Part shown: positions 47,001 to 63,957 of the stretch, piece by piece
Position numbering within the stretch: position 1 is the first letter of the stretch
How the letters are laid out: each line of letters opens with the position of its first letter
Source of the DNA: Ignavibacteriota bacterium
Lineage (GTDB): Bacteria; Bacteroidota; Ignavibacteria; UBA10030
Assembly (NCBI GenBank): GCA_963778945.1
Contig: CAVZWL010000009.1
Span: 135,968 to 199,967 of the forward strand
Reading direction: 5' to 3'
DNA length: 64,000 nt
Notes under the pieces: generated by a model
Databases searched by the model: none
Told to the model about the DNA's origin: nothing
The model's input: the letters and a program-made list of their open reading frames with translations, nothing else
Program-made: the position numbers and the translations under genes

Positions 47001-47325
47001 ATATTTTGCTTTGATCACTATTCGTGAGATATTATACTGTGAAGATAGAAACAAAGAACAAATGGTAAGAAAAATTTCAATTTATTGAATATCAATAGAA
47101 CATGGACGATGAAATACGAACGTAAAGCATTGTTTAATTTTGTCGTTGAACGAATTCGTTAACCATGCATTGATTTTGATCTGTATTTTGCTATTTTAAT
47201 CTATATCACTGAAATGAAATAAGTTTTTTTATAATTCAATTTGACGTGGTAATTTGAATTAGAAGCGTAGTTAATTCAATTTGGCTCTCATAAACGAAGA
47301 ATACAGAACCACCAGGATAATTTCT

Positions 47326-48462
47326 ATGAATCTTGAAAATTTTAAGGCCGGTACCTATCGTCAGCAGAATCAATATAAAAGTTTTTCCCCTTCCAAAGTA
47401 AATGAGAATTGGTTTTGGAATAATCAGAAGTTGAATACTCTTCTTGCGGAGGCAAACTATAAGTTAGGATCGCTCAATGCATTTTCGCTCCATGTGCCCG
47501 ATGTCGATTTCTATATCCAGATGCACAAGACAAAGGAGGCTACTGCCTCCAGCCGAATAGAAGGAACGAAAACTGAGGTTGAAGATGCGTTGCTGCGGAA
47601 AGCGGATGTTCTGCCTGAGCGGCGTGATGATTGGCAGGAAGTGCAAAACTACATCGATGCATTGAATTTTGCAGTCTGTCAATTGGAAACGCTTCCTGTC
47701 TCTACACGGTTACTGAAAGAGACCCATCGGATACTCTTATGCAAAGGACGCGGCGAGAGGAAAGACCCCGGAGAATATCGTCACAGTCAGAATTGGATTG
47801 GCGGTACAAATCCAGGTAATGCAGCTTTTGTGCCTCCGCATCATGAAGAAATCCCGGAGTTGATGGGAGATTTGGAAAACTTTTTGCACAATGATTCAAT
47901 CGACGTGCCTGACCTTGTCCGTATTGCCATCGGTCATTATCAGTTTGAAACGATCCATCCATTCTTAGATGGCAATGGTCGCATCGGGCGGCTGATGATC
48001 ACACTCTATCTTGTCAATAAGGGTTTACTGTCGAAGCCAACATTGTATCTTTCGGACTATTTTGAGAGACATCGAACGGAATATATTGACGCATTAGCTC
48101 GAGTGCGAATAAAAGATGATATTCTTCCGTGGATCAGGTTCTTCATGGAGGCAGTTATTGCTACGGCGACAAAGGGAGTGGATACATTTGGAAAGATACA
48201 AAAGCTTCGGGATGAAGTAGAGGGAGCAAAGCTGGTAACACTTGGCAAGAGATTCCCGAGAGCGAAAGAATTAGTGAATGCCTTGTATCGGAAACCTACT
48301 GTTACATCTGCTGACGTTTCTGAGATATTGGATGTAGTACAGGGAACCGCCAATACGTTGATAGATGATTTTGTGAAGCTCGGTATACTTGTCGAAATTA
48401 CAGGCAGCAGACGTAATAGAATATTTACTTTTGCGGAATACGTGAAGTTGTTTACGTCATAG
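47326..48462 (+). CDS. Fic family protein (class II, AMPylase-type); the ORF extends to a TTG at 47281 but ATG 47326 is the likelier start
   Basis: Canonical Fic motif HPFLDGNGRIGR. N-terminal inhibitory helix motif SSRIEG (S/T-x-x-x-E-G/N). Fic_N-like start MNLENFKAGTYRQQNQYKSFSP. Confidence 0.85.
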   Translation: MNLENFKAGTYRQQNQYKSFSPSKVNENWFWNNQKLNTLLAEANYKLGSLNAFSLHVPDVDFYIQMHKTKEATASSRIEGTKTEVEDALLRKADVLPERRDDWQEVQNYIDALNFAVCQLETLPVSTRLLKETHRILLCKGRGERKDPGEYRHSQNWIGGTNPGNAAFVPPHHEEIPELMGDLENFLHNDSIDVPDLVRIAIGHYQFETIHPFLDGNGRIGRLMITLYLVNKGLLSKPTLYLSDYFERHRTEYIDALARVRIKDDILPWIRFFMEAVIATATKGVDTFGKIQKLRDEVEGAKLVTLGKRFPRAKELVNALYRKPTVTSADVSEILDVVQGTANTLIDDFVKLGILVEITGSRRNRIFTFAEYVKLFTS

Positions 48463-50815: not shown

Positions 50816-51703
50816 ATGGCTTTACTTTTCAATACAGGTATAGAGAATAAAATATTAGGTGTTTCTTTGGACACCATCTTTACAACCCTAGTGACTATTA
50901 GCATATTCATCCTCGGTTATCTATTCAACAGAGTCTATGAATGGCGAAAGGAAATGCGCCACTTCAAAGATGTCCGTAATTTAATTTGCTCACATCTAGA
51001 ATCATTGATAGAACATATCGACAAGCAAATAGGACAGTATAAGAAATTCGGAGAGCATCTTGCTAGCCATAAACTTGAAGAATATACTTTTAATGAATCC
51101 CTTATCCAAACTGATTTTCTGAGTAATCTGCCTTATCTCGACATTTTTCAAGCCTTCAAGCTCGGCCCAAGAAGCCAACGCAGCCAACGCATTGAAGCCT
51201 ACAACTCTATGTTTCAAGCGATAAAATTTATCGAAAGACAAAATTTAATAACAAAAACACAATTCTTTGAACTCGATAGAATACGTAGTGTGCATATTGC
51301 AACTTGGAACAGTAATAATGATAGTATACTGCGTTTTCATGACCAGCTTCTAGGATTAGTTCGTAGAAATCGTGTGACCCCCAACGATGACGCTTTCTTT
51401 ACAGAATTAAATGCCATTGTTCATGATCTTGCTCAACAGGCAAACAGTTCTGACCTTGAAATTATCTTTACGCATTTCGTCGAACCAATTATAGATTTGG
51501 TAAAAAGATTCAATTCTGATCAACGTACTGACATACTTTCGCCTCTCGTCCTCAAATCCTCGAAAGCTCATGAGGATTTAATCCGTTTACTTGATTCATA
51601 TAGCAGATTGTACTTGGAGCAATCGTCTAATTTAGAAAAGAGAAAGGAAATTATTGTCAGAGTAATATCATCATTAAAATTTTATTTACAGCAGAAATCA
51701 TAA
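50816..51703 (+). CDS. membrane-anchored all-helical hypothetical protein, stop 7 nt upstream of hsdM
   Basis: 295 aa with a single N-terminal TM helix (LDTIFTTLVTISIFILGYLF) and no recognisable catalytic motif. Confidence 0.5.
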   Translation: MALLFNTGIENKILGVSLDTIFTTLVTISIFILGYLFNRVYEWRKEMRHFKDVRNLICSHLESLIEHIDKQIGQYKKFGEHLASHKLEEYTFNESLIQTDFLSNLPYLDIFQAFKLGPRSQRSQRIEAYNSMFQAIKFIERQNLITKTQFFELDRIRSVHIATWNSNNDSILRFHDQLLGLVRRNRVTPNDDAFFTELNAIVHDLAQQANSSDLEIIFTHFVEPIIDLVKRFNSDQRTDILSPLVLKSSKAHEDLIRLLDSYSRLYLEQSSNLEKRKEIIVRVISSLKFYLQQKS

Positions 51704-51710
51704 AACCTTT

Positions 51711-54104
51711 ATGGCAATAAAAAAATCTGAATTATACAGTTCACTTTGGGCGAGTTGCGATGAACTGCGCGGCGGGATGGATGCTTCGCAATACAAAGAT
51801 TACGTTCTCGTTCTCTTGTTTATGAAATATGTTTCTGACAAGGCGGCGAGTCAAGCTGGATACCTGCTTGATGTACCAAAGGGCGGCAGCTTTGCAGATA
51901 TGGTCGCATTGAAAGGTGACAAGGAAATTGGGGATAAGATAAATAAGATCATCGGCAAGCTTGCAGCAAAGAATGATCTCAAAGGTGTAATTGACGTTGC
52001 AGACTTTAATGATGATGACAAGTTGGGCAAGGGAAAAGAGATGGTGGACCGTCTTTCCAATCTTGTCTCTATCTTCAATACTCCTGCCCTCGACTTCCGG
52101 AGCAACCGTGCTGAAGGAGATGATATACTTGGAGATGCCTACGAATATTTAATGCGCCACTTTGCTACGGAATCAGGGAAAAGCAAGGGACAATTCTACA
52201 CCCCTGCTGAAGTTTCTCGTATTATGGCAAAGGTTATCGGCATTGGGAACGCAACAAGCTCCAGCCAAACAATCCACGATCCGACATGCGGTTCAGGTTC
52301 ACTGCTGCTCAAAGCTCATGATGAGGCGAAGGGAAGCACAGGGAAAGACCTTACGCTCTATGGACAGGAAATGGATAATGCCACCGCTGCATTAGCCAAG
52401 ATGAATATGATCCTGCATGATTGCCCGACTGCGGAAATTTGGAAGGATAATACTCTCTCAAGTCCACATTTCAAATCTAATAGCGGCCTCAAGACATTCG
52501 ATTTCGTTGTTGCCAATCCACCATTCTCGACCAAGGCGTGGAGCAATGGTTTCAATCCCGCAGAGGATGAGTTTAAACGTTTTGAATACGGTATACCACC
52601 GATGAAGAACGGGGACTATGCATTTCTGCTGCACATACTTGCAACGCTCAAGAGCACGGGCAAAGGTGCTTGCATTCTCCCGCATGGCGTACTGTTCCGG
52701 GGCGGAGCTGAGGGAATCATTCGGAAAAATATTGTTCAGCGCGGTTACATTAAAGGGATCATCGGACTGCCGGCAAATCTGTTTTATGGTACAGGTATTC
52801 CCGCTTGCATCGTTGTGGTGGATAAGGAACACGCTTCAGCCCGTAAGGGTATCTTCATGATTGATGCATCGAAGGGATACATCAAGGACGGCAATAAGAA
52901 TCGTCTGCGAACACAGGATATTCATCGCATTGTAGATACTTTCAATCGGCAGGTAGAAGACAAACGATACTCCCGTATGGTGCCATTGGCAGAGATCAGC
53001 GATGCAAAGAACGACTTTAATCTCAATCTTCCGCGTTACATCGACAGCACCGAACCGGAAGACTTACAGGATATTGATGCACATCTCAATGGAGGGATTC
53101 CTAATCGGGATATTGATGACCTTGAACGTTACTGGGAGGTTTTTCCCGGTGTGCGTGCCACACTATTCAAAAAGGGAGATCGTTCGGGCTACTCACAACT
53201 CAAAGTTCCGATTGGCGAGGTAAAGGCGGCTATCTTTGGTCATTCAGAGTTCACCACATTCAATCAATCCGTTACGAAGTTGTTTGCAAAATGGAAGACA
53301 GCAAACATGCCGCGCCTTACCGGTATCAAGAAAGGGGACCATCCCAAGGAATTGATTGAAACACTCTCGGAAGAATTATTGGAGACTTTTAAAAAAGCAA
53401 AGCTACTCAACCCGTATGATGTATATCAGCACTTGATGGATTACTGGGCGGAGACGATGCAGGATGATGTGTATATGCTCGTGCAGGATGGATGGAAGGC
53501 CGTGCTGGATGGCAAGCCCAACATAGACCTCATACCTCAACAGCTTCTTGTGAGCCGATACTTCCAGACAGAAGCCAAGGCGATTGTGCAATTAGAAGCA
53601 GACCGTGATGCGATTACCCGGCAAATGGAAGAGATGGATGAAGAGCACGGCGGTGAAGATGGATTATTGGCAGAGGCGAAGAACGACAAAGGGAAACTCA
53701 CAAAGGCGAGTGTTAAAGCTCGGCTCAGTGGGATAGAAGATGACAAAGATGTTGCCGATGAGTGCAAGCTGCTAAAGGCATACCAAGCCCTTATCGAAAA
53801 AGAAGCTGATGCAGGGAGGCAGGTAAAGGAAGCACAAAAGGAGCTTGATGCCAAGGTTACGGCAAAATACTCCAAGCTTTCCACAGACGAGATTAAAACG
53901 CTGGTGGTGGATGATAAATGGCTGACAAAGCTTGGTGGCGATGTGCAAAGTGAGCTTGACCGCGTTTCCCAGGCGCTTACCGGACGTATACGTGAGCTTG
54001 GAGAACGATATGATGCACCGCTGCCACAGCTCAAGAGCGAGGTTGACAGGCTCGCTGCCCGCGTAGATGAGCACCTCAAGAAAATGGGAATGGCATGGAA
54101 GTAA
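51711..54104 (+). CDS. hsdM: type I restriction-modification system methyltransferase subunit HsdM, long form (797 aa) with ~280-aa charged coiled-coil C-terminal extension
   Basis: HsdM_N start KSELYSSLWASCDELRG, AdoMet motif DPTCGSGSLL, and catalytic NPPFS. Confidence 0.9.
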   Translation: MAIKKSELYSSLWASCDELRGGMDASQYKDYVLVLLFMKYVSDKAASQAGYLLDVPKGGSFADMVALKGDKEIGDKINKIIGKLAAKNDLKGVIDVADFNDDDKLGKGKEMVDRLSNLVSIFNTPALDFRSNRAEGDDILGDAYEYLMRHFATESGKSKGQFYTPAEVSRIMAKVIGIGNATSSSQTIHDPTCGSGSLLLKAHDEAKGSTGKDLTLYGQEMDNATAALAKMNMILHDCPTAEIWKDNTLSSPHFKSNSGLKTFDFVVANPPFSTKAWSNGFNPAEDEFKRFEYGIPPMKNGDYAFLLHILATLKSTGKGACILPHGVLFRGGAEGIIRKNIVQRGYIKGIIGLPANLFYGTGIPACIVVVDKEHASARKGIFMIDASKGYIKDGNKNRLRTQDIHRIVDTFNRQVEDKRYSRMVPLAEISDAKNDFNLNLPRYIDSTEPEDLQDIDAHLNGGIPNRDIDDLERYWEVFPGVRATLFKKGDRSGYSQLKVPIGEVKAAIFGHSEFTTFNQSVTKLFAKWKTANMPRLTGIKKGDHPKELIETLSEELLETFKKAKLLNPYDVYQHLMDYWAETMQDDVYMLVQDGWKAVLDGKPNIDLIPQQLLVSRYFQTEAKAIVQLEADRDAITRQMEEMDEEHGGEDGLLAEAKNDKGKLTKASVKARLSGIEDDKDVADECKLLKAYQALIEKEADAGRQVKEAQKELDAKVTAKYSKLSTDEIKTLVVDDKWLTKLGGDVQSELDRVSQALTGRIRELGERYDAPLPQLKSEVDRLAARVDEHLKKMGMAWK

Positions 54105-55309
54105 AAGCTGGATATAAGCAATATGAGGAGAGTGTGGTCCCAAAAGATTGGAGTATCAAACCACTTTGCGATGTTGTTGACTTCTTAGATGGAAAGAGAC
54201 GGCCTGTGAAGGACAGCGACCGTGCGAAAATGAAAGGTGACATTCCATACTATGGAGCTTCTGGCGTTGTCGATTTTGTCAATGATTTCTTGTTCAACGA
54301 AGATTTAATTTTGCTTGGTGAAGATGGCGAAAATATCCTCAGTCGGAATTGTCCGCTTGCGTTCAAAATATCGGGTAAGACATGGGTAAACAATCATGCG
54401 CATGTTTTGAGACCTAAACCAGGAATGGCAATCGAATATTTAACGGAGTTCTTGGAAAGTCGAGATTATGTCCAATATAACACTGGGACAGCACAGCCAA
54501 AATTAAACAAGTTCGTCTGTTCTGGAATACCAGTACACTGTCCACCACTTCCCGAACAGCGCGCCATCGCAACAGCACTAAGCGATGTGGATGCACTGAT
54601 CGGCTCACTGGATAAGCTCATCGCCAAGAAAATCAACCTCAAACAGGCCGCTATGCAGAATTTGCTGACCGGCAAGAAACGACTGCCGGGGTTTAAGGGA
54701 GAGTGGGAAGTGAAGTGCCTTGATCAACTCGGCGAAGTATCTGGTGCTGGTGTTGATAAGAAAATTCGTCCAAATGAAGTTCCTGTTAGACTTGTTAACT
54801 ACCTCGATATTTATCGAAGAGACTTTATTTATTCAAGAGACCTAAATCACGTTGTTAGCGCGCCACCTGATCAGGCATATCGGTGTTCGGTTAAGAAAGG
54901 CGATGTATTTTTCACACCTTCTTCGGAAGTGCCAAATGACATTGGTATTTCGGCTGTCGCTATGGAGGATATTCCTGATGCAGTATATAGCTACCATGTC
55001 GTTCGCCTTCGACTTCCTGAGGATTGGGATCTCAAATATCGTGCTTATGCCTTCAAATCGCGTCAATTTTTAGATGAAGCTGAGCGTCTTTGCGAGGGTA
55101 GTGGAATCCGATACGTTCTAACCCAAGCTCGATTTCGACAACTCAAAGTTCTTGTTCCGCCAACAATTCAAGAACAAGCTGCTATCGGGGATGTTCTCTA
55201 CGACATAGATGCAGAGATTGCAGCATTGGAACAGCGTCGGGACAAGACCCGCGCACTCAAGCAGGGAATGATGCAGGAATTACTAACGGGAAGGATTAGG
55301 TTGGTTTGA
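54095..55309 (+). CDS. hsdS: type I restriction-modification system specificity subunit HsdS
   Basis: 404 aa with two TRD halves. Conserved spacer helices LPEQRAIATALSDVDALIGSLDKLIAKK and IQEQAAIGDVLYDIDAEIAALEQRRDKTRALKQGMMQELLTG. 10-nt overlap with hsdM. Confidence 0.85.
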   Translation: MEVKAGYKQYEESVVPKDWSIKPLCDVVDFLDGKRRPVKDSDRAKMKGDIPYYGASGVVDFVNDFLFNEDLILLGEDGENILSRNCPLAFKISGKTWVNNHAHVLRPKPGMAIEYLTEFLESRDYVQYNTGTAQPKLNKFVCSGIPVHCPPLPEQRAIATALSDVDALIGSLDKLIAKKINLKQAAMQNLLTGKKRLPGFKGEWEVKCLDQLGEVSGAGVDKKIRPNEVPVRLVNYLDIYRRDFIYSRDLNHVVSAPPDQAYRCSVKKGDVFFTPSSEVPNDIGISAVAMEDIPDAVYSYHVVRLRLPEDWDLKYRAYAFKSRQFLDEAERLCEGSGIRYVLTQARFRQLKVLVPPTIQEQAAIGDVLYDIDAEIAALEQRRDKTRALKQGMMQELLTGRIRLV

Positions 55310-55421
55310 AAAGATTTTGCATACACTGTGTGCAGCATTAAGCTGGCCTCAAATCCGGCAGCCAGAGTTATTGGTATGAGCAGAAAGTATAGGAAGTTAT
55401 ATATAGTTATAGCTATATTAC

Positions 55422-55449
55422 TGTATAACCGTGTATAATTATGTATAAC
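55422..55449 (+). promoter_or_regulatory. three direct TGTATAAY repeats phased exactly 10 bp apart (55422, 55432, 55442), about 20 nt upstream of the ATPase start; the middle copy contains a perfect TATAAT
   Basis: Read directly: ctgtataacc gtgtataatt atgtataact. The function (internal promoter or operator) is inferred. Confidence 0.4.
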
Positions 55450-55469
55450 TTGTTGTAAAGGATTAACCG

Positions 55470-56693
55470 ATGGATAATATTAAAAATCCCTTTTCACCAG
55501 GAGCGGGTTCGCCTCCTCCGGAACTTGCCGGTCGAGGTTCCATCCTTGAAGAAGCTCGAATATTATTGGGTAGAGTGAGAGAAGGAAGGCCTGAAAAGAG
55601 CATTATGATGACAGGACTTCGCGGTGTAGGCAAGACAGTTCTATTGGTGGAAGTTGAAAAAATTGCACAACAAGAAGGATATAGGACACTCTTTATTGAA
55701 GCGTATGAAGATAAAAAACTTGCACTCTTGATTGTCCCTCATCTGAGAAGACTTCTCTTTGATTTGGATCGTATCAAAGGTGCTGGAGACAAAGTAAAAC
55801 GGGGAATACGCGTATTGAAAAGTTTCCTCAGTGGTATAAAAATCAAAGTCGGTGAAGTAGAAATGGGTATCGATGTCGATCCTGAAAAAGGTACCGCTGA
55901 TAGTGGTGATTTAGAAATTGACCTTCCAGAGTTGTTTTGTGTTGTTGCTGAAGCGGCGGCGGAACGAAACACAGCGGTAGCAGTCTTGATCGATGAAATA
56001 CAATATTTTACACAATCGGAATTGAGTGCATTAATTATGGCTATGCACAAACTTCAACAGCGCAGCTTGCCATTGGTTCTCATTGGTGCAGGACTCCCAA
56101 TACTTCCAGGATTGGCAGGTGAATCGAAATCATATGCTGAACGACTTTTCAATTTTCCTGACATTGGCCCGCTCTCTGATGCAGATGCCACGAAAGCGCT
56201 CCAGGATCCAGTGAAAGCTGTTGGAGAAGAGTTTGACCAGACTGCGTTGCAAGAGATTTATCGTTTGACAAAGGGTTATCCGTATTTCATTCAGGAATGG
56301 GGTTACCAGACATGGAATCTTGCTCCGACTTCTCCGATTACATTCGCTATAACTCAAAAGGCAACATCTATCGTAAGAAAGCGATTGGATGAAAATTTTT
56401 TTCGCGTGCGATTTGACCGATTGACGGCTAAGGAAAAGGAATATCTTAGGGCGATGGCTGAACTTGGTCCGGGTCCACATCGTACAGCAAAAATTGCAAA
56501 AGCGCTTGGATCAAAGTTAACAACATTGGGGCCATTAAGGGCAAGTCTTATTGGCAAAGGAATGATTTATAGTCCATCTTACGGTGATATGGCTTTTACT
56601 GTTCCACTTTTTGATGAGTTTATGCACCGATCTATGCCGCAATTCAAAACAAAGAAATCAAAGCCGACGAAGAAGAAAAATAAAAAAGCATGA
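55470..56693 (+). CDS. AAA+ ATPase (ORC/Cdc6-like or archaeal-ATPase-like) with C-terminal winged-helix-like region, embedded in the type I R-M operon
   Basis: Walker A TGLRGVGKTVLL and Walker B AVLIDEIQ. C-terminal LTAKEKEYLRAMAELGP...AKIAKALG resembles a wHTH. Its TGA overlaps the hsdR ATG (ATGA at 56690-56693). Confidence 0.7.
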   Translation: MDNIKNPFSPGAGSPPPELAGRGSILEEARILLGRVREGRPEKSIMMTGLRGVGKTVLLVEVEKIAQQEGYRTLFIEAYEDKKLALLIVPHLRRLLFDLDRIKGAGDKVKRGIRVLKSFLSGIKIKVGEVEMGIDVDPEKGTADSGDLEIDLPELFCVVAEAAAERNTAVAVLIDEIQYFTQSELSALIMAMHKLQQRSLPLVLIGAGLPILPGLAGESKSYAERLFNFPDIGPLSDADATKALQDPVKAVGEEFDQTALQEIYRLTKGYPYFIQEWGYQTWNLAPTSPITFAITQKATSIVRKRLDENFFRVRFDRLTAKEKEYLRAMAELGPGPHRTAKIAKALGSKLTTLGPLRASLIGKGMIYSPSYGDMAFTVPLFDEFMHRSMPQFKTKKSKPTKKKNKKA

Positions 56694-59600
56694 GTAAGGT
56701 TGGTCAAATAGAACGTGCAACGCAGAACCGCATTGTAAAACTGTTGCACACCAAACTTGGATACGACTATCTCGGCAACTGGGAAGAGCGACCGGATAAT
56801 CAAAACATCGAAGAAGGATACCTTCGGCCTTTTCTGAAAAGACAGGGATATAGCGAAACTCTCATCACCCGTGCGCTCTATGAATTGAACAAGATTGCAG
56901 GGGATCAGACAAAAAGTCTTTACGACAATAATAAAGAAGTATATGGGCTTCTCCGATATGGTGTGAAGGTCAAAGAAGAGGCGGGAGAAAATACAAGCAC
57001 CGTTTGGTTGATCGATTGGAAGAATCCGGGTAAGAACGATTTCGGAGTGGCAGAGGAAGTCACAGTCAGCGGCAAGCACGATAAACGTCCGGATGTTGTC
57101 TTATATGTAAACGGTATTGCTTTGGGCGTACTGGAGCTAAAGCGTTCAACTGTGTCTGTAAGTGAAGGAATCCGTCAAAACCTGGATAACCAGAAGGATA
57201 CATTTATCGAGCGTTTCTTTACTACTATGCAGCTCGTAATGGCAGGAAACGATACTGAGGGGTTACGTTACGGCGTGATCGGTACACCTGAAAAATATTA
57301 TTTGAATTGGAAAGAAGAAAGTAATATCGAGAATCTGCTCGACCGGTCGCTTACTCAGCTTTGCGAGAAGAACCGCTTTTTGGAAATCATTCACGACTTC
57401 ATTCTTTTTGACGCAGGGATAAAGAAACCATGCCGACATAGCCAATATTTCGCCGTAAGAGCTGCACAAGCTCGTATCAAGAAACGCGAGGGGGGCATAA
57501 TATGGCATAGCCAGGGAAGCGGAAAGAGCTTGGTTATGGTATGGTTGGCCAAATGGCTGCGTGAACACCTCAACGATGCCCGAGTCCTTATTATCACCGA
57601 CCGTACCGAATTGGATGAACAGATTGAGAAGGTATTCAAGGGTGTCAGTGAAAATATCTATCGGACGAAAAGCGGTTCTGATCTAATTGCAAAACTGAAT
57701 GACACAACGCCGTGGCTTTTATGTTCCCTCATCCATAAATTCGGCGGGAAAGAAGAGGGAGAAGAGGTCGGAGATATACCGGCCTACATAGAGGAGGTGA
57801 AGAATGCGCTGCCTCCCGGATTCAAGCCGAAGGGAGATCTGGTCGTGTTTGTTGACGAGTGTCATAGAACTCAATCAGGTGAACTGAACAAAGCAATGAA
57901 GGCCATTCTGCCGAATGCTCTCTTTATCGGTTTTACAGGCACACCGCTCTTGAGAGCCGATAAGCAGAGAAGTATTGAAGTGTTTGGGGGTTACATCCAT
58001 ACCTATAAGTTTGATGAAGCGGTGAAAGACAAAGTAGTGTTGGATCTCCGGTATGAAGCGCGCAACATTGAGCAGAACATCACATCACAGCAAAAAATCG
58101 ATCTCTGGTTCGATGCAAAGACAAAGGGTTTGAATGATGTTGCTCTTACCCAACTGAAGAAAAAATGGGGCACTATGAATATGGTGCTCTCCAGCCAATC
58201 GCGTCTTGAAAAGATCGTCGCTGATATACTTCTGGACATGGAGACAAAAGACCGTCTGAAAAGCGGTCATGGCAATGCAATGCTCATCTCCGGCAGCATC
58301 TACCAAGCTTGCAAACTTTATGAGTTGTTCACATCTCACGGCTTCGATAAATGTGCCATTGTCACCTCATATCAACCATACATCGCCGATGTGAAAGGTG
58401 AAGAGAGCGGCGAAGGATTGACCGAGAAGCTGCGGAAGTACCGATATCTACAAAAAAATGCTCTCCAACTGGTTCAGGCAGGATCCTGAGAAAGCAGTTA
58501 ATCGAGTTGAAGAATTTGAAAAAGATGTAAAGAAAAAGTTTGTCAACGAACCGGGCCAAATGAAACTGCTGATCGTTGTGGACAAGCTGCTGACAGGATT
58601 TGATGCACCTCCGGCGACGTATCTTTACATCGACAAACAGATGCAGGATCACGGATTATTCCAGGCAATCTGCCGTGTGAACCGCTTGCATGACGATGAT
58701 AAGGAATACGGCTACATCATCGACTATAAGGATCTGTTCAATAGCTTGAAAGGAGCCGTTGAAGATTACACATCGGGCGCTCTCGATGGTTACGACAAGA
58801 AAGATGTAGCAGGTCTGCTCTCAGGCCGGTTGGAGAAAGCGAAGGAACGTCTCGAAGAGTCACGGGAAGCAATCAAGGTCCTCTGCGAAGCAGTAGATCC
58901 GCCAAAGGACACTCCTGATTATTTGCGATACTTCTGTGCAAAGGACACTGCGAACAAAGACCAGTTAAAAGAAAACGAGCCCAGACGTGTGGCATTGTAC
59001 AAACTTACGGTGTCGCTGATACGGTCATACGCGGATGTTGCCAATGAGATGGTGGAAGCAGGCTACTCTCCTGATGAGACAGAAAAAATTAAACAGGAAG
59101 TGGATCATTTTGAAAAGGCTCGCACAGAAGTAAAAATGGCGAGCGGCGACTACATCGACTTGAAGATGTTTGAGCCGGCCATGAGGCATCTGATTGATAC
59201 CTACATACGTGCGGAAGATAGCAAAAAAATTTCCACCTTTGACGATATGAGTTTGGTTCAACTTATCGTGGAACGTGGTGCGGATGCGATTGATGCACTC
59301 CCGGCAGGTATTCGAAATAATAAGAAAGCTGTAGCAGAGACGATTGAGAACAATTTGCGCAGGGTTATTATCGACGAGCAGCCGATCAATCCAAAATACT
59401 TTGAGAAAATGTCCGAGTTGCTGGATGCGCTGATAAAGGAGCGCAAGGCGGAATCCTTAGCGTATGAGAAATATCTTGAGAAGATTGTCGAGTTGGCAAA
59501 GAAAGTGAAAAATTCCACATTTGGAACTGTCTATCCTATGGCTCTTCATACTAATGCGATGCGAGCTCTCTACGATAATCTCGAAAAGAATGAATCGCTT

Positions 59601-59762
59601 GCCTTAGCAGTTCATGAAGCAGTTGTTGATAACAAACAGGATGATTGGCGCGGTAATACTATAAAAACAAAGAAAGTCCGCTATGCAGTATTAAAAGTAC
59701 TGAAGAACGAACAACAAACGGATCATGTTATAGAAATTGTTAAGAAACAGGCCGAATACTAG
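56690..59762 (+). CDS. hsdR: type I restriction enzyme endonuclease/translocase subunit HsdR, frame change near 58445-58460 (fragments 56690-58489 and 58458-59762)
   Basis: HSDR_N nuclease region (RPDVVLYVNGIALGVLELK), helicase motifs HSQGSGKS, DECHRTQ and FTGTP, then LIVVDKLLTGFDAP and QAICRVNR in the second fragment. Confidence 0.9.
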
Positions 59763-59868: not shown

Positions 59869-60585
59869 ATGCACAGAATACGAGTTTCCGGACTTTTAGT
59901 CGATGTTGTCCGCAAAAACATAAAGCACATGCATTTGGCCGTTTATCCTCCGGACGGCCGTGTGCGTGTAGCCGTACCGGTGCATATCGGCGATGAGGCC
60001 ATACGTCTTGCCGTTATTGTCCGATTACCATGGATACATAAGCATCAGCAGAAATATACCAATCAGGTAAGACAATCTCCTCGCGAATACATCTCACGGG
60101 AGAGCCATTACTTCAAAGGTCGAAGGTATTTGTTGAATGTTATAGAACACGATGGATTCGCTAAAGTTGTTTTAAATGGAAAACCCACTATTGACCTCTA
60201 CGTTCCCATAGGATCCGGACACGCGAAACGAGAAAGGACTCTCCAGGAATGGTATCGGCAGGAACTGAAAGTCCAAATTCCTCCTCTCATCGAAAAATGG
60301 CAGAAGATCATGCATGTAGGCGTGTCCGATTGGAAGATTAAAAGGATGAAGACCAAATGGGGGACATGCAACATACGAGAACGAAGGATATGGGTAAATC
60401 TCGAGATTGTAAAAAAACCGGTCCAATGCCTCGATTATATAATCGTCCACGAGATGGCGCATCTCATGGAACGCACACACAACGCAAATTTCATTGCCTT
60501 GATGGACAAGTTCCTGCCAAACTGGAAATCACTTCGCCAGACGTTGAACAGTTATCCTCTGCAGCATGAGAATTGGGAGTATTGA
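59869..60585 (+). CDS. YgjP-like (DUF45/M48 family) metal-dependent hydrolase
   Basis: 238 aa with HEMAHL zinc motif. WGTCN...RIWVNLEIVKKP is typical of the family. Commonly linked to type I R-M. Confidence 0.75.
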   Translation: MHRIRVSGLLVDVVRKNIKHMHLAVYPPDGRVRVAVPVHIGDEAIRLAVIVRLPWIHKHQQKYTNQVRQSPREYISRESHYFKGRRYLLNVIEHDGFAKVVLNGKPTIDLYVPIGSGHAKRERTLQEWYRQELKVQIPPLIEKWQKIMHVGVSDWKIKRMKTKWGTCNIRERRIWVNLEIVKKPVQCLDYIIVHEMAHLMERTHNANFIALMDKFLPNWKSLRQTLNSYPLQHENWEY

Positions 60586-63430: not shown

Positions 63431-63700
63431 TCACTCAAACAAGTCTGTATGTGTCCCTGTGCGAACAAGTATTAATTCGTTTTCAGTCAGTTTGTAAATA
63501 AGAAACCAATCAGGTCTAATGTGGCACTCTCGGCAATCCCTGTAATCTCCAAGTAAAGAATGGTCTCTATACTTTGCGCCTAACTTCTTGCTCTTTGCCA
63601 GCGCTTCAATAACGGTGTGCAATTGCTCGATATCTTCTCCGCGCTTAAGACACCGCTTGTAGTCTTTTTTAAATTGCGATACCCTGCGGAGTGCCAGCAT
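63431..63700 (-). CDS. yafQ: type II toxin-antitoxin system YafQ/RelE-family mRNA interferase toxin
   Basis: 89 aa. FKKDYKRCLKRG...DHSLLGDYRDCRECHIRPDWFLIYKL...LILVRTGTHTDLF matches the YafQ pattern. Confidence 0.8.
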   Translation of the reverse strand: MLALRRVSQFKKDYKRCLKRGEDIEQLHTVIEALAKSKKLGAKYRDHSLLGDYRDCRECHIRPDWFLIYKLTENELILVRTGTHTDLFE

Positions 63701-63957
63701 TACTTACCAAGCTCCGCTAACAGGGCCTTTGTAGAATTGAATGTACTTCCTTTTCCTTTTCTTGCCTCTGCAATCGCTTTGCGTGTCTCTTCATTCGGTA
63801 TCCTGACATCGAACGGTATTCCATTCGCATGCTGCACCTGTTTAAAGAAAATATTGATTGCATCCGTCGTGTTTATCCCCAACGCGTTGAGAATGTTCTC
63901 TACTTTGCTTTTTAGTTCTGGCTCCATACGTGCCTGCACCATTGCTGTTCTTGCCAT
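63700..63957 (-). CDS. dinJ: DinJ/RelB-family antitoxin
   Basis: 85 aa. VQARMEPELKSKVENILNALGINTTDAINIFFKQVQHANGIPFDVRIP is a typical DinJ ribbon-helix-helix. 1-nt overlap with the toxin gene. Confidence 0.8.
   Translation of the reverse strand: MARTAMVQARMEPELKSKVENILNALGINTTDAINIFFKQVQHANGIPFDVRIPNEETRKAIAEARKGKGSTFNSTKALLAELGK

Follow-up and report, generated by a model that had tools for sequence, protein, structure and literature searches.

Introduction

The anticodon nuclease PrrC is carried as cargo by the type I restriction-modification (R-M) operon EcoprrI. A comparable arrangement is found in the RRDM island of enteropathogenic Escherichia coli (EPEC), where the genes are ordered hsdM-hsdS-[DarTG2]-hsdR-M48/YgjP and the site is described by the authors as a potential hotspot of recombination (PMC12255303). 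We describe here the same junction in a stretch of 64,000 nucleotides from an Ignavibacteriota bacterium (GenBank assembly GCA_963778945.1, contig CAVZWL010000009.1, positions 135,968 to 199,967), referred to below as the window, in which a gene for a 407-residue AAA+ ATPase lies between hsdS and hsdR. The layout is shared with the RRDM island and the gene at the S|R junction is unrelated. Unlike DarTG2, the cargo in the window brings a conserved array of short repeats with it; no effector can be recognised in it, and it is not a toxin-antitoxin pair or an anticodon nuclease. Cargo genes in the hsdS|hsdR slot are already known and the protein comes from a known superfamily; the conserved array that travels with the ATPase gene is new here.

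Similar in fold to the window protein are the Arch_ATPase proteins (PF01637; 2qen and 2fna) and archaeal Orc1/Cdc6 (2qby, 2v1u and 1fnn), with which it shares an AAA+ base, a helical lid, a C-terminal winged helix and a length of ~350-400 amino acids. We know of no function for the Arch_ATPase proteins. Orc1/Cdc6 genes adjoin inverted, repeated binding sites at archaeal origins, and initiator genes are known to be autoregulated. The sequences ELAGR before Walker A, SYAERLF..F..IGPL after sensor 1 and GYPYF at the start of the lid presumably parallel Arch_ATPase motifs. Sequence similarity to either group is marginal, however, and the family to which the window protein belongs is bacterial and horizontally spread, with no MCM-type partner present.

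Controller (C) proteins of type II R-M systems and the repressor RptR resemble the locus in layout, with repeated or palindromic sites upstream of their own genes, which lie just upstream of or overlap the restriction gene; RptR binds three repeats in its own promoter (PMC12255303). The common logic would be autoregulation that at the same time sets the level of the restriction gene. C proteins and RptR are helix-turn-helix proteins of ~80-100 amino acids with no ATPase, whereas the window encodes a 407-residue AAA+ protein whose binding to the array is putative and most of whose relatives do not lie beside a restriction gene. BrxC, BrxD, DUF499 (PMC12839542) and MtsA of MANTIS belong to the same AAA+ clade, with a winged helix-turn-helix (wHTH) after the lid and operons that include DNA methyltransferases, and MtsA loads its methyltransferase on DNA (bioRxiv 10.64898/2026.09.23.753747). 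Of these, BrxC, DUF499 and MtsA have several domains and are much larger, BrxD is an ATPase that stands alone and lacks DNA-binding domains, and all of them have obligate conserved partners (PMC12839542; bioRxiv 10.64898/2026.09.23.753747). The window protein, in contrast, has no fixed partner and no PADLOC match to BrxC, and its family is found mostly away from methyltransferases.

Results and Discussion

A conserved six-site array precedes the ATPase gene

We consider it probable that the window carries an autoregulated, horizontally mobile single-gene cassette, consisting of the array and a gene for an ORC/Cdc6-like AAA+ protein with a wHTH domain, which occupies a cargo slot between hsdS and hsdR. 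A role for the ATPase as a fourth subunit dedicated to the restriction enzyme is improbable.

The array in the window consists of three TTATAC-like cores followed by three GTATAA-like cores, with spacings of 10, 10, 16, 10 and 10 bp. The pattern is unique in the 64-kb window, with four overlapping matches against 0.11 expected. The same layout is present upstream of the homologues in nearly all of the 80 genomic loci surveyed from the ATPase side, at over 100 times the background frequency and irrespective of phylum, GC content and context, and it is also present in plasmid copies. Among these loci successive cores are spaced by 10 bp in 122 cases and separated by a 16-bp central gap in 55; TTATA-type cores are concentrated between -80 and -41 and TATAA-type cores between -40 and -11, and in almost every homologue the array ends 10-25 nucleotides ahead of the ATG. 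The consensus reads ..AtTTATAc (x3) - tattTT - gGTATAAat (x3), and core variants that keep the layout include TTCTA, TGCTA, GTCTA and GTATA. In plasmid subfamilies further removed, the dyad repeats differ or the orientation is flipped. No comparable array was found downstream of the ATPase gene in the 80 loci. DNA homology to the closest relative, locus L172, starts at position 55384, and the L172 array begins 4 nucleotides after the hsdS stop, so the array forms the left boundary of the cassette. As judged from these sequences, the array appears to be regulatory DNA that accompanies the gene in whatever host or setting it is found. No description of a family-wide six-site array, or of the solitary and promiscuous distribution of the family, was found in the literature searched, the coverage of which was itself incomplete.

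The short conserved cores, their spacing by one helical turn and their arrangement as two inverted triplets lead us to read the array as a protein operator. By way of its winged helix the ATPase would bind the array ahead of its own gene, probably in the form of an ATP-dependent oligomer; two trimers or a hexamer are suggested by the six sites, which lie on one helical face as two inverted triplets. Such binding would autoregulate the promoter of the ATPase gene itself. A scan of positions 55310-55469 with the sigma-70 consensus found no canonical -35/-10 pair, and promoter-like sites are fewer than expected from shuffled sequence. There is no terminator-like site between the ATPase gene and hsdR, and the presumed cassette promoter may therefore also feed hsdR. 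Any control of hsdR would be a side effect of position, resembling that exerted by a C protein but incidental to the purpose of the family; if the cassette promoter does drive hsdR, this would be a new mode of restriction-gene regulation. The six-site array provides a ready binding substrate and reporter, and its natural variants in core and layout offer a test of specificity.

The center of the array (55410-55415) reads TAGCTA, and GCTATA/TATAGC core variants are common in the family. TAGCTA is also the minimal palindrome bound by RptR, an unrelated type I-associated repressor (PMC12255303), a resemblance that is probably coincidental.

A large family of stand-alone ATPases

That the open reading frame (ORF) is a real gene is borne out by its homologues, which make up more than 8000 clusters at 90% identity, the top 120 of them at 71-100% identity. 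In a profile search of 1.84 billion representatives, 9793 matched with E<=1e-3, among them 1522 with E<=1e-30; nearly all are 385-410 amino acids long and align from end to end, and there are ~1,500 family clusters at 50% identity. Identity within the family is 60-85% across more than 15 host phyla, and 22 members drawn from many phyla have a mean column identity of 82%. The carriers include 109 plasmid records and a single phage record. The family has a fixed stand-alone architecture and is horizontally spread. It is very large and unusually conserved and has a recognisable control element of its own, and its members are labelled in the databases only as "ATP-binding protein" or "AAA family ATPase".

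The hsdS|hsdR junction is a slot for interchangeable cargo

The stop codon of the ATPase gene is the TGA of an ATGA at positions 56690-56693 that also holds the hsdR start. The initial annotation took this overlap to imply stoichiometric co-expression with the nuclease subunit and a possible fourth subunit, an attractive inference that comparison with related operons does not support. The junction was surveyed from the hsdR side using the best 80 of more than 546 metagenomic loci, 68-88% identical to the window hsdR, 66 of which were informative. Among the latter, hsdS directly abuts hsdR at 36, with the hsdS stop overlapping the hsdR ATG as ...TTGATATGAGC, and the other 30 have a different cargo of 0.7-4.2 kb at the junction, 12 of which likewise end in the hsdR ATGA. 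Since the ATGA is found both in the hsdS of insert-free operons and in 12 of 30 unrelated cargos, the overlap stems from the hsdR start (ATG AGx) and nothing about it is specific to the ATPase; it is a property of the insertion slot. The junction is thus a slot for interchangeable cargo. The other cargos, whose families were named by eye, include a 308-residue PDDEXK-like protein (seven loci), a YhcG-like protein (five), a 285-residue helical protein with a Zn-ribbon (five) and AlbA_2/HATPase_c_4 proteins (four), zeta-toxin-like pairs (two loci), AAA_14-DUF4143 ATPases (two) and IS200-type transposases. Several of these cargo families also adjoin the ATPase in other genomes.

The ATPase itself is present in none of these 80 closest hsdR relatives sampled. 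Its distance to hsdR is also variable, the spacing of -4 being found in the window only, against +4 in L171-L175, +10 in L013 and +14 in L011, so that translational coupling to hsdR is not conserved; nor does the gene co-occur consistently with hsdR, hsdM and hsdS, with only ~7 of the 80 ATPase loci adjacent to type I genes. Between the window and L172 the ATPase is 84% identical, HsdR 69/60%, YgjP 52% and HsdS 36%. The greater conservation of the ATPase than of its R-M flanks, and its intactness beside broken hsdR genes and stubs, favor independence from R-M. Among the three roles offered in the initial annotation, the data agree with that of an independent module that hitch-hikes in the operon.

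Neighborhoods of the ATPase homologues

The neighbors of the ATPase in the 80 loci were compared by clustering of all ORFs and with a tblastn panel (3 kb). Neither the clustering nor Pfam searches of the flanks revealed any neighbor gene conserved across the loci; in the Pfam searches of the longest flanking ORFs no family occurs in more than 2 of 73 loci, although R-M genes are undercounted in this search since the wrong ORF was sometimes chosen. The flanks span housekeeping genes (tRNA synthetase, G6PD, ALAD, Rho), toxin-antitoxin pairs, Fic, AlbA_2, integrases and relaxases. Together with the R-M genes and plasmids described here, these neighborhoods would place the family in the accessory gene pool of defense systems and the mobilome.

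Type I genes or their stubs are adjacent in ~7 of the 80 loci, in three arrangements: hsdS|ATPase|hsdR (L011, L013), hsdM|ATPase|hsdS (L016) and ATPase|hsdR-hsdM-hsdS of another family (L003). A type III context is found at about ten loci, where the ATPase gene is preceded by Mod (PADLOC MTase_III, 1381 bits) and followed by a UvrD-like helicase, in full length or as stubs. In L036, L040 and L041 a Mod methyltransferase of 940-990 amino acids is followed by the ATPase and then by a UvrD-like helicase of ~700 amino acids, which starts MEFRIADTFTDSL; stubs of this context are present in L029, L039, L044, L045, L050, L056 and L057, in which the helicase is often cut to its first few dozen codons. 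Intact copies of the ATPase stand beside R-M stubs in L001, L002, L029 and L039. Remnants of the 5' end of hsdR adjoin the cassette in L013 (4672-5261), L002 (11112-11750) and L001 (7319-7759); L013 has its remnant upstream, accompanied by a ParE toxin gene, as well as an hsdR downstream, and the stub in L001 and L002 is downstream, with no other R-M genes. These remnants suggest either mobility of the cassette, by way of recombination in the hsdR sequence beside it, or its survival where operons decay. The proteins closest to that of the window, at 84-85% identity, have the same hsdS-ATPase-hsdR-YgjP layout with hsdR intact, and the next relative (76% identical) is beside an integrase and housekeeping genes. 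The link to R-M is real, but most loci are without it and it extends beyond type I.

Alternative explanations

Several observations weigh against a self-contained cassette. In 15 of the 80 loci the 3 kb around the ATPase gene contain R-M genes or remnants of them, with type I genes of at least three families and type III Mod with the UvrD-like helicase; the R-M-adjacent copies are usually on the same strand, after the M or S gene and just upstream of the R or helicase gene; and a small sublineage of type I operons retains the ATPase in the slot as hsdS-ATPase-hsdR-YgjP. The survey from the hsdR side is a sample and not a census. The structural model is of moderate confidence (pLDDT 68, pTM 0.55, TM ~0.45-0.5), a co-variation comparison of core type with the residues of winged-helix helix 3 gave no clean association, and the window array folds as a hairpin (-22.6 kcal/mol, z -2.8), with perfect 31/31 palindromes at L060 and L072, so that a nucleic-acid structure may play a part. 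The R-M associations are consistent with a dedicated accessory, a loader or gate acting with the methyltransferase or nuclease in the manner of BrxC or MtsA, and ORC/Cdc6-type AAA+ proteins with wHTH domains do cooperate with methyltransferases in BREX and MANTIS; a homologue also has a weak match to the MADS ATPase mad8 of PADLOC (E 2.9e-6, the P-loop region alone). We nonetheless judge this role, which is drawn by analogy, to be unlikely. No R-M panel gene lies within 3 kb in 65 of the 80 loci and many of these are among housekeeping genes, the 80 closest hsdR relatives sampled have no ATPase, type I operons carry the gene at different positions (S|R, M|S or ahead of R-M-S), and intact copies persist near decayed stubs and a frameshifted hsdR. 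The protein also has no significant PADLOC match, BrxC included, and has neither the additional domains nor the obligate partners that BrxC and MtsA have. An association with R-M genes, about which the initial annotation asked, is real, with R-M genes or stubs directly adjacent in 15 of the 80 loci, although it concerns a minority and extends beyond type I systems.

The ATPase could instead be a stand-alone anti-phage or anti-plasmid protein, which as an ATP-dependent, DNA-binding oligomer would recognise phased AT-rich sites of invading DNA and block their replication or transcription. Its neighbors are like those of defense islands (toxin-antitoxin, Fic, AlbA_2, YhcG, nSTAND3 and R-M), the other cargos of the slot are typical defense-island genes, and the family is sporadic, horizontally spread and nearly absent from phages; but it has no effector domain and no significant PADLOC match, many copies sit between housekeeping genes, and a mean column identity of 82% is unlike the fast-evolving sensors typical of defense proteins, so that this is again a doubtful alternative. 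We think it highly improbable that the cassette is an initiator with its origin, that is, an ORC-like replication or segregation factor for which the inverted phased repeats around a T-rich center would be an ORB- or iteron-like origin. The best structural match is indeed Orc1/Cdc6 on origin DNA, the gene adjoins inverted repeats around an AT-rich center as at archaeal origins, and there are 109 plasmid copies and one copy beside an integrase. Against this, no helicase, primase or other replication or partition gene co-travels with it, the host plasmids have other typed replicons, many copies are chromosomal among housekeeping genes, and the array is always at promoter or operator distance from the ATG, which would also fit autoregulation of an initiator gene. 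Equally hard to credit is a chiefly structural role for the array, in which it would form a hairpin in the mRNA leader or a cruciform in the DNA in place of an operator for a protein. The hairpin and the perfect palindromes noted above speak for it, as does the mirror complementarity at variable spacers, which is 0.46 within loci versus 0.33 (standard deviation 0.016) between loci. This excess is due to a few perfect palindromes, however, with most loci near the control, including the window (0.38); the conserved part consists of short cores with 10-bp phasing, as is typical where proteins bind along one face of the helix, and a search of Rfam gave no match for the array. A bolder form of the cassette reading, to which we give little weight, is a widespread self-mobilising module in which an ATP-dependent hexamer or two trimers on the six-site array act upstream of the restriction or helicase genes of type I and type III operons as an ATP-gated controller of restriction expression, an AAA+ analogue of the C proteins, or as an effector-less defense or silencing protein against AT-rich phased sites on incoming DNA.

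Features of the ATPase and its operon

The 407-residue P-loop protein with Walker A and B motifs between hsdS and hsdR, as first annotated, was confirmed in its ORF, motifs and flanks by the sequence and by Pfam and NCBIfam searches (Table 1). The leader TTATAAAGGA ahead of the ATPase gene is common to the window, L171-L173 and L176. The N-terminal motif is found in the sequence (PFSPGAGSPPPELAGRGSILEE / PFSPGAGSPPPELAGR). Among 22 homologues G49, R51, G52, V53, G54, K55 and T56 of Walker A are invariant, as are D175, E176 and Q178 of Walker B.

Table 1. Coordinates of the features at the hsdS|hsdR junction of the window.
Feature	Position	Strand	Evidence or remarks
hsdM	51711-54104	+	Pfam N6_Mtase (343 bits), HsdM_N; NCBIfam TIGR00497
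hsdS	54095-55309	+	Pfam Methylase_S, two matched stretches
Spacer between hsdS stop and array, 74 nucleotides	55310-55383		No counterpart in closest relative L172
Conserved array, candidate operator/promoter	55384-55458	+	Six cores: TTATA-type at 55388, 55398, 55408; TATAA-type at 55424, 55434, 55444
Shine-Dalgarno-like AAGGA, 7 nucleotides ahead of ATG	55458-55462	+	Read from sequence
AAA+ ATPase, ORC/Cdc6- or Arch_ATPase-like, 407 amino acids, with lid and C-terminal winged helix; cargo gene	55470-56693	+	Homologues, Pfam, AlphaFold2 model, Foldseek
Walker A GLRGVGKT, residues 49-56	55614-55637	+	Read from sequence
Walker B VLIDEIQ, residues 172-178	55983-56003	+	Read from sequence
C-terminal winged-helix region, ~residues 318-378 (helices 320-332, 339-346, 350-362, then wing)	56421-56603	+	Model secondary structure, Foldseek
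Lys-rich C-terminal tail, ~13 residues, ending ...KPTKKKNKKA and reaching the TGA of the hsdR ATGA	56655-56693	+	
hsdR, frameshift-interrupted in the assembly	56690-59762	+	HSDR_N, SWI2_SNF2, TIGR00348
YgjP-like (M48-type) metallopeptidase	59869-60585	+	Pfam YgjP-like, 195 bits

The window protein matches Pfam AAA_16 (PF13191) with 52.5 bits against a cutoff of 32.6 and AAA_22 with 31.3 against 27. It falls below the cutoff for PF01637 (ATPase_2 / Arch_ATPase; 26.8 versus 33.2 bits), for which many homologues have a precomputed match. The match to TIGR02928 (Orc1/Cdc6) has 21.4 bits against a cutoff of 181.3 and covers the P-loop region alone, so that the protein is not a member of that family; the NCBIfam matches to Orc1/Cdc6 and Hda are at the P-loop level only, and sequence searches of the PDB gave only marginal P-loop matches (ORC4, E 0.025). 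An AlphaFold2 model built from the 22 homologues predicts that an AAA+ base is followed by a helical lid and, at the C-terminus, by a domain of three helices plus a wing. Its best Foldseek match in the PDB is 2qby_A, an Orc1/Cdc6 on origin DNA (E 7e-7, TMq 0.45, 408 columns versus the 407-residue query), and further best matches are PAB2304 (2qen) and SSO1545 (2fna), both within the top four, and RuvB. The alignments to the Orc1/Cdc6 and Arch_ATPase proteins cover approximately the full length of the query. Weak supporting matches for the winged helix are provided by MarR in the C-terminus of a homologue (E 0.003) and by a 66-residue PDB chain over residues 320-375. The Pfam matches, the model and the Foldseek comparisons thus agree with the ORC/Cdc6- or Arch_ATPase-like core and wHTH tail initially proposed, and the protein is assigned to the AAA+ group of AAA_16, ORC-Cdc6 and Arch_ATPase, with a predicted architecture of base, lid and winged helix. 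The Lys-rich tail extends past the usual end of the family, most homologues being 394-399 amino acids, and is otherwise found only in the closest relatives P0002 and P0003.

The model and Foldseek alignments show no effector domain and no sensor repeats, the 407 residues being fully used by the ATPase, lid and wHTH. The STAND class, one of the initial candidates, was rejected on these grounds; the match to nSTAND_NTPase5 is 16.9 bits against a cutoff of 34, and the family is uniformly ~390-400 amino acids. A search of PADLOC-DB v2 with the window protein gave no significant match, only mad8 (E 0.0035, 14.9 bits) and AbiO (E 0.0085). An anticodon nuclease of the PrrC/RloC type was rejected, with the fold being AAA+ with wHTH and with no nuclease domain and no Pfam or PADLOC match, and BrxC and Hma-like identities were rejected on architecture and missing profile matches. 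An R-M controller (C) protein has an analogous layout, with dyad repeats and a gene ahead of hsdR, but differs in protein class.

Two segments of the ATPase are invariant across phyla and of low confidence in the model: residues 1-22 (55470-55535), NPFSPGAGSPPPELAGR, and residues 121-147 (55830-55910), an acidic loop DxxPExGxADSGDLExDLP between Walker A and Walker B. These could be interaction or regulatory surfaces.

The hsdR reading frame is broken into two ORFs (56690-58489 and 58458-59762) by a 1-nucleotide frame change at ~58444-58446 (cga|t|atc), outside any homopolymer run. HsdR is intact in relatives, with 1015 amino acids in L172 and 1098 in L011, and the frameshift in the window could be either a genuine restriction-minus, methylation-plus state or an assembly error. 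The YgjP-like metallopeptidase is the usual last gene of this family of type I operons and has the same place in L172 and L013. The GC content of the cassette (0.43-0.44) equals that of its flanks and gives no compositional trace of recent arrival.

Upstream of hsdM is an ORF of 295 amino acids (50816-51703) with an apparent N-terminal transmembrane helix and without a Pfam or PADLOC match; its stop is 8 nucleotides upstream of the hsdM start, so that the operon may begin with it and include it as an additional accessory component. A Fic/DOC protein with Fic_N and Fic domains and a weak C-terminal MarR-type wHTH is encoded further upstream (47281-48462). Fic-like genes recur near the ATPase homologues, forming a cluster of five loci, and the copy in L048 is 227 nucleotides downstream of the ATPase and 40% identical. 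At the right end of the window (63431-63957, - strand) are genes for a RelE/YafQ-like toxin (89 amino acids) and a DinJ/RelB-like antitoxin (85 amino acids), both named by eye, which overlap by 1 nucleotide.

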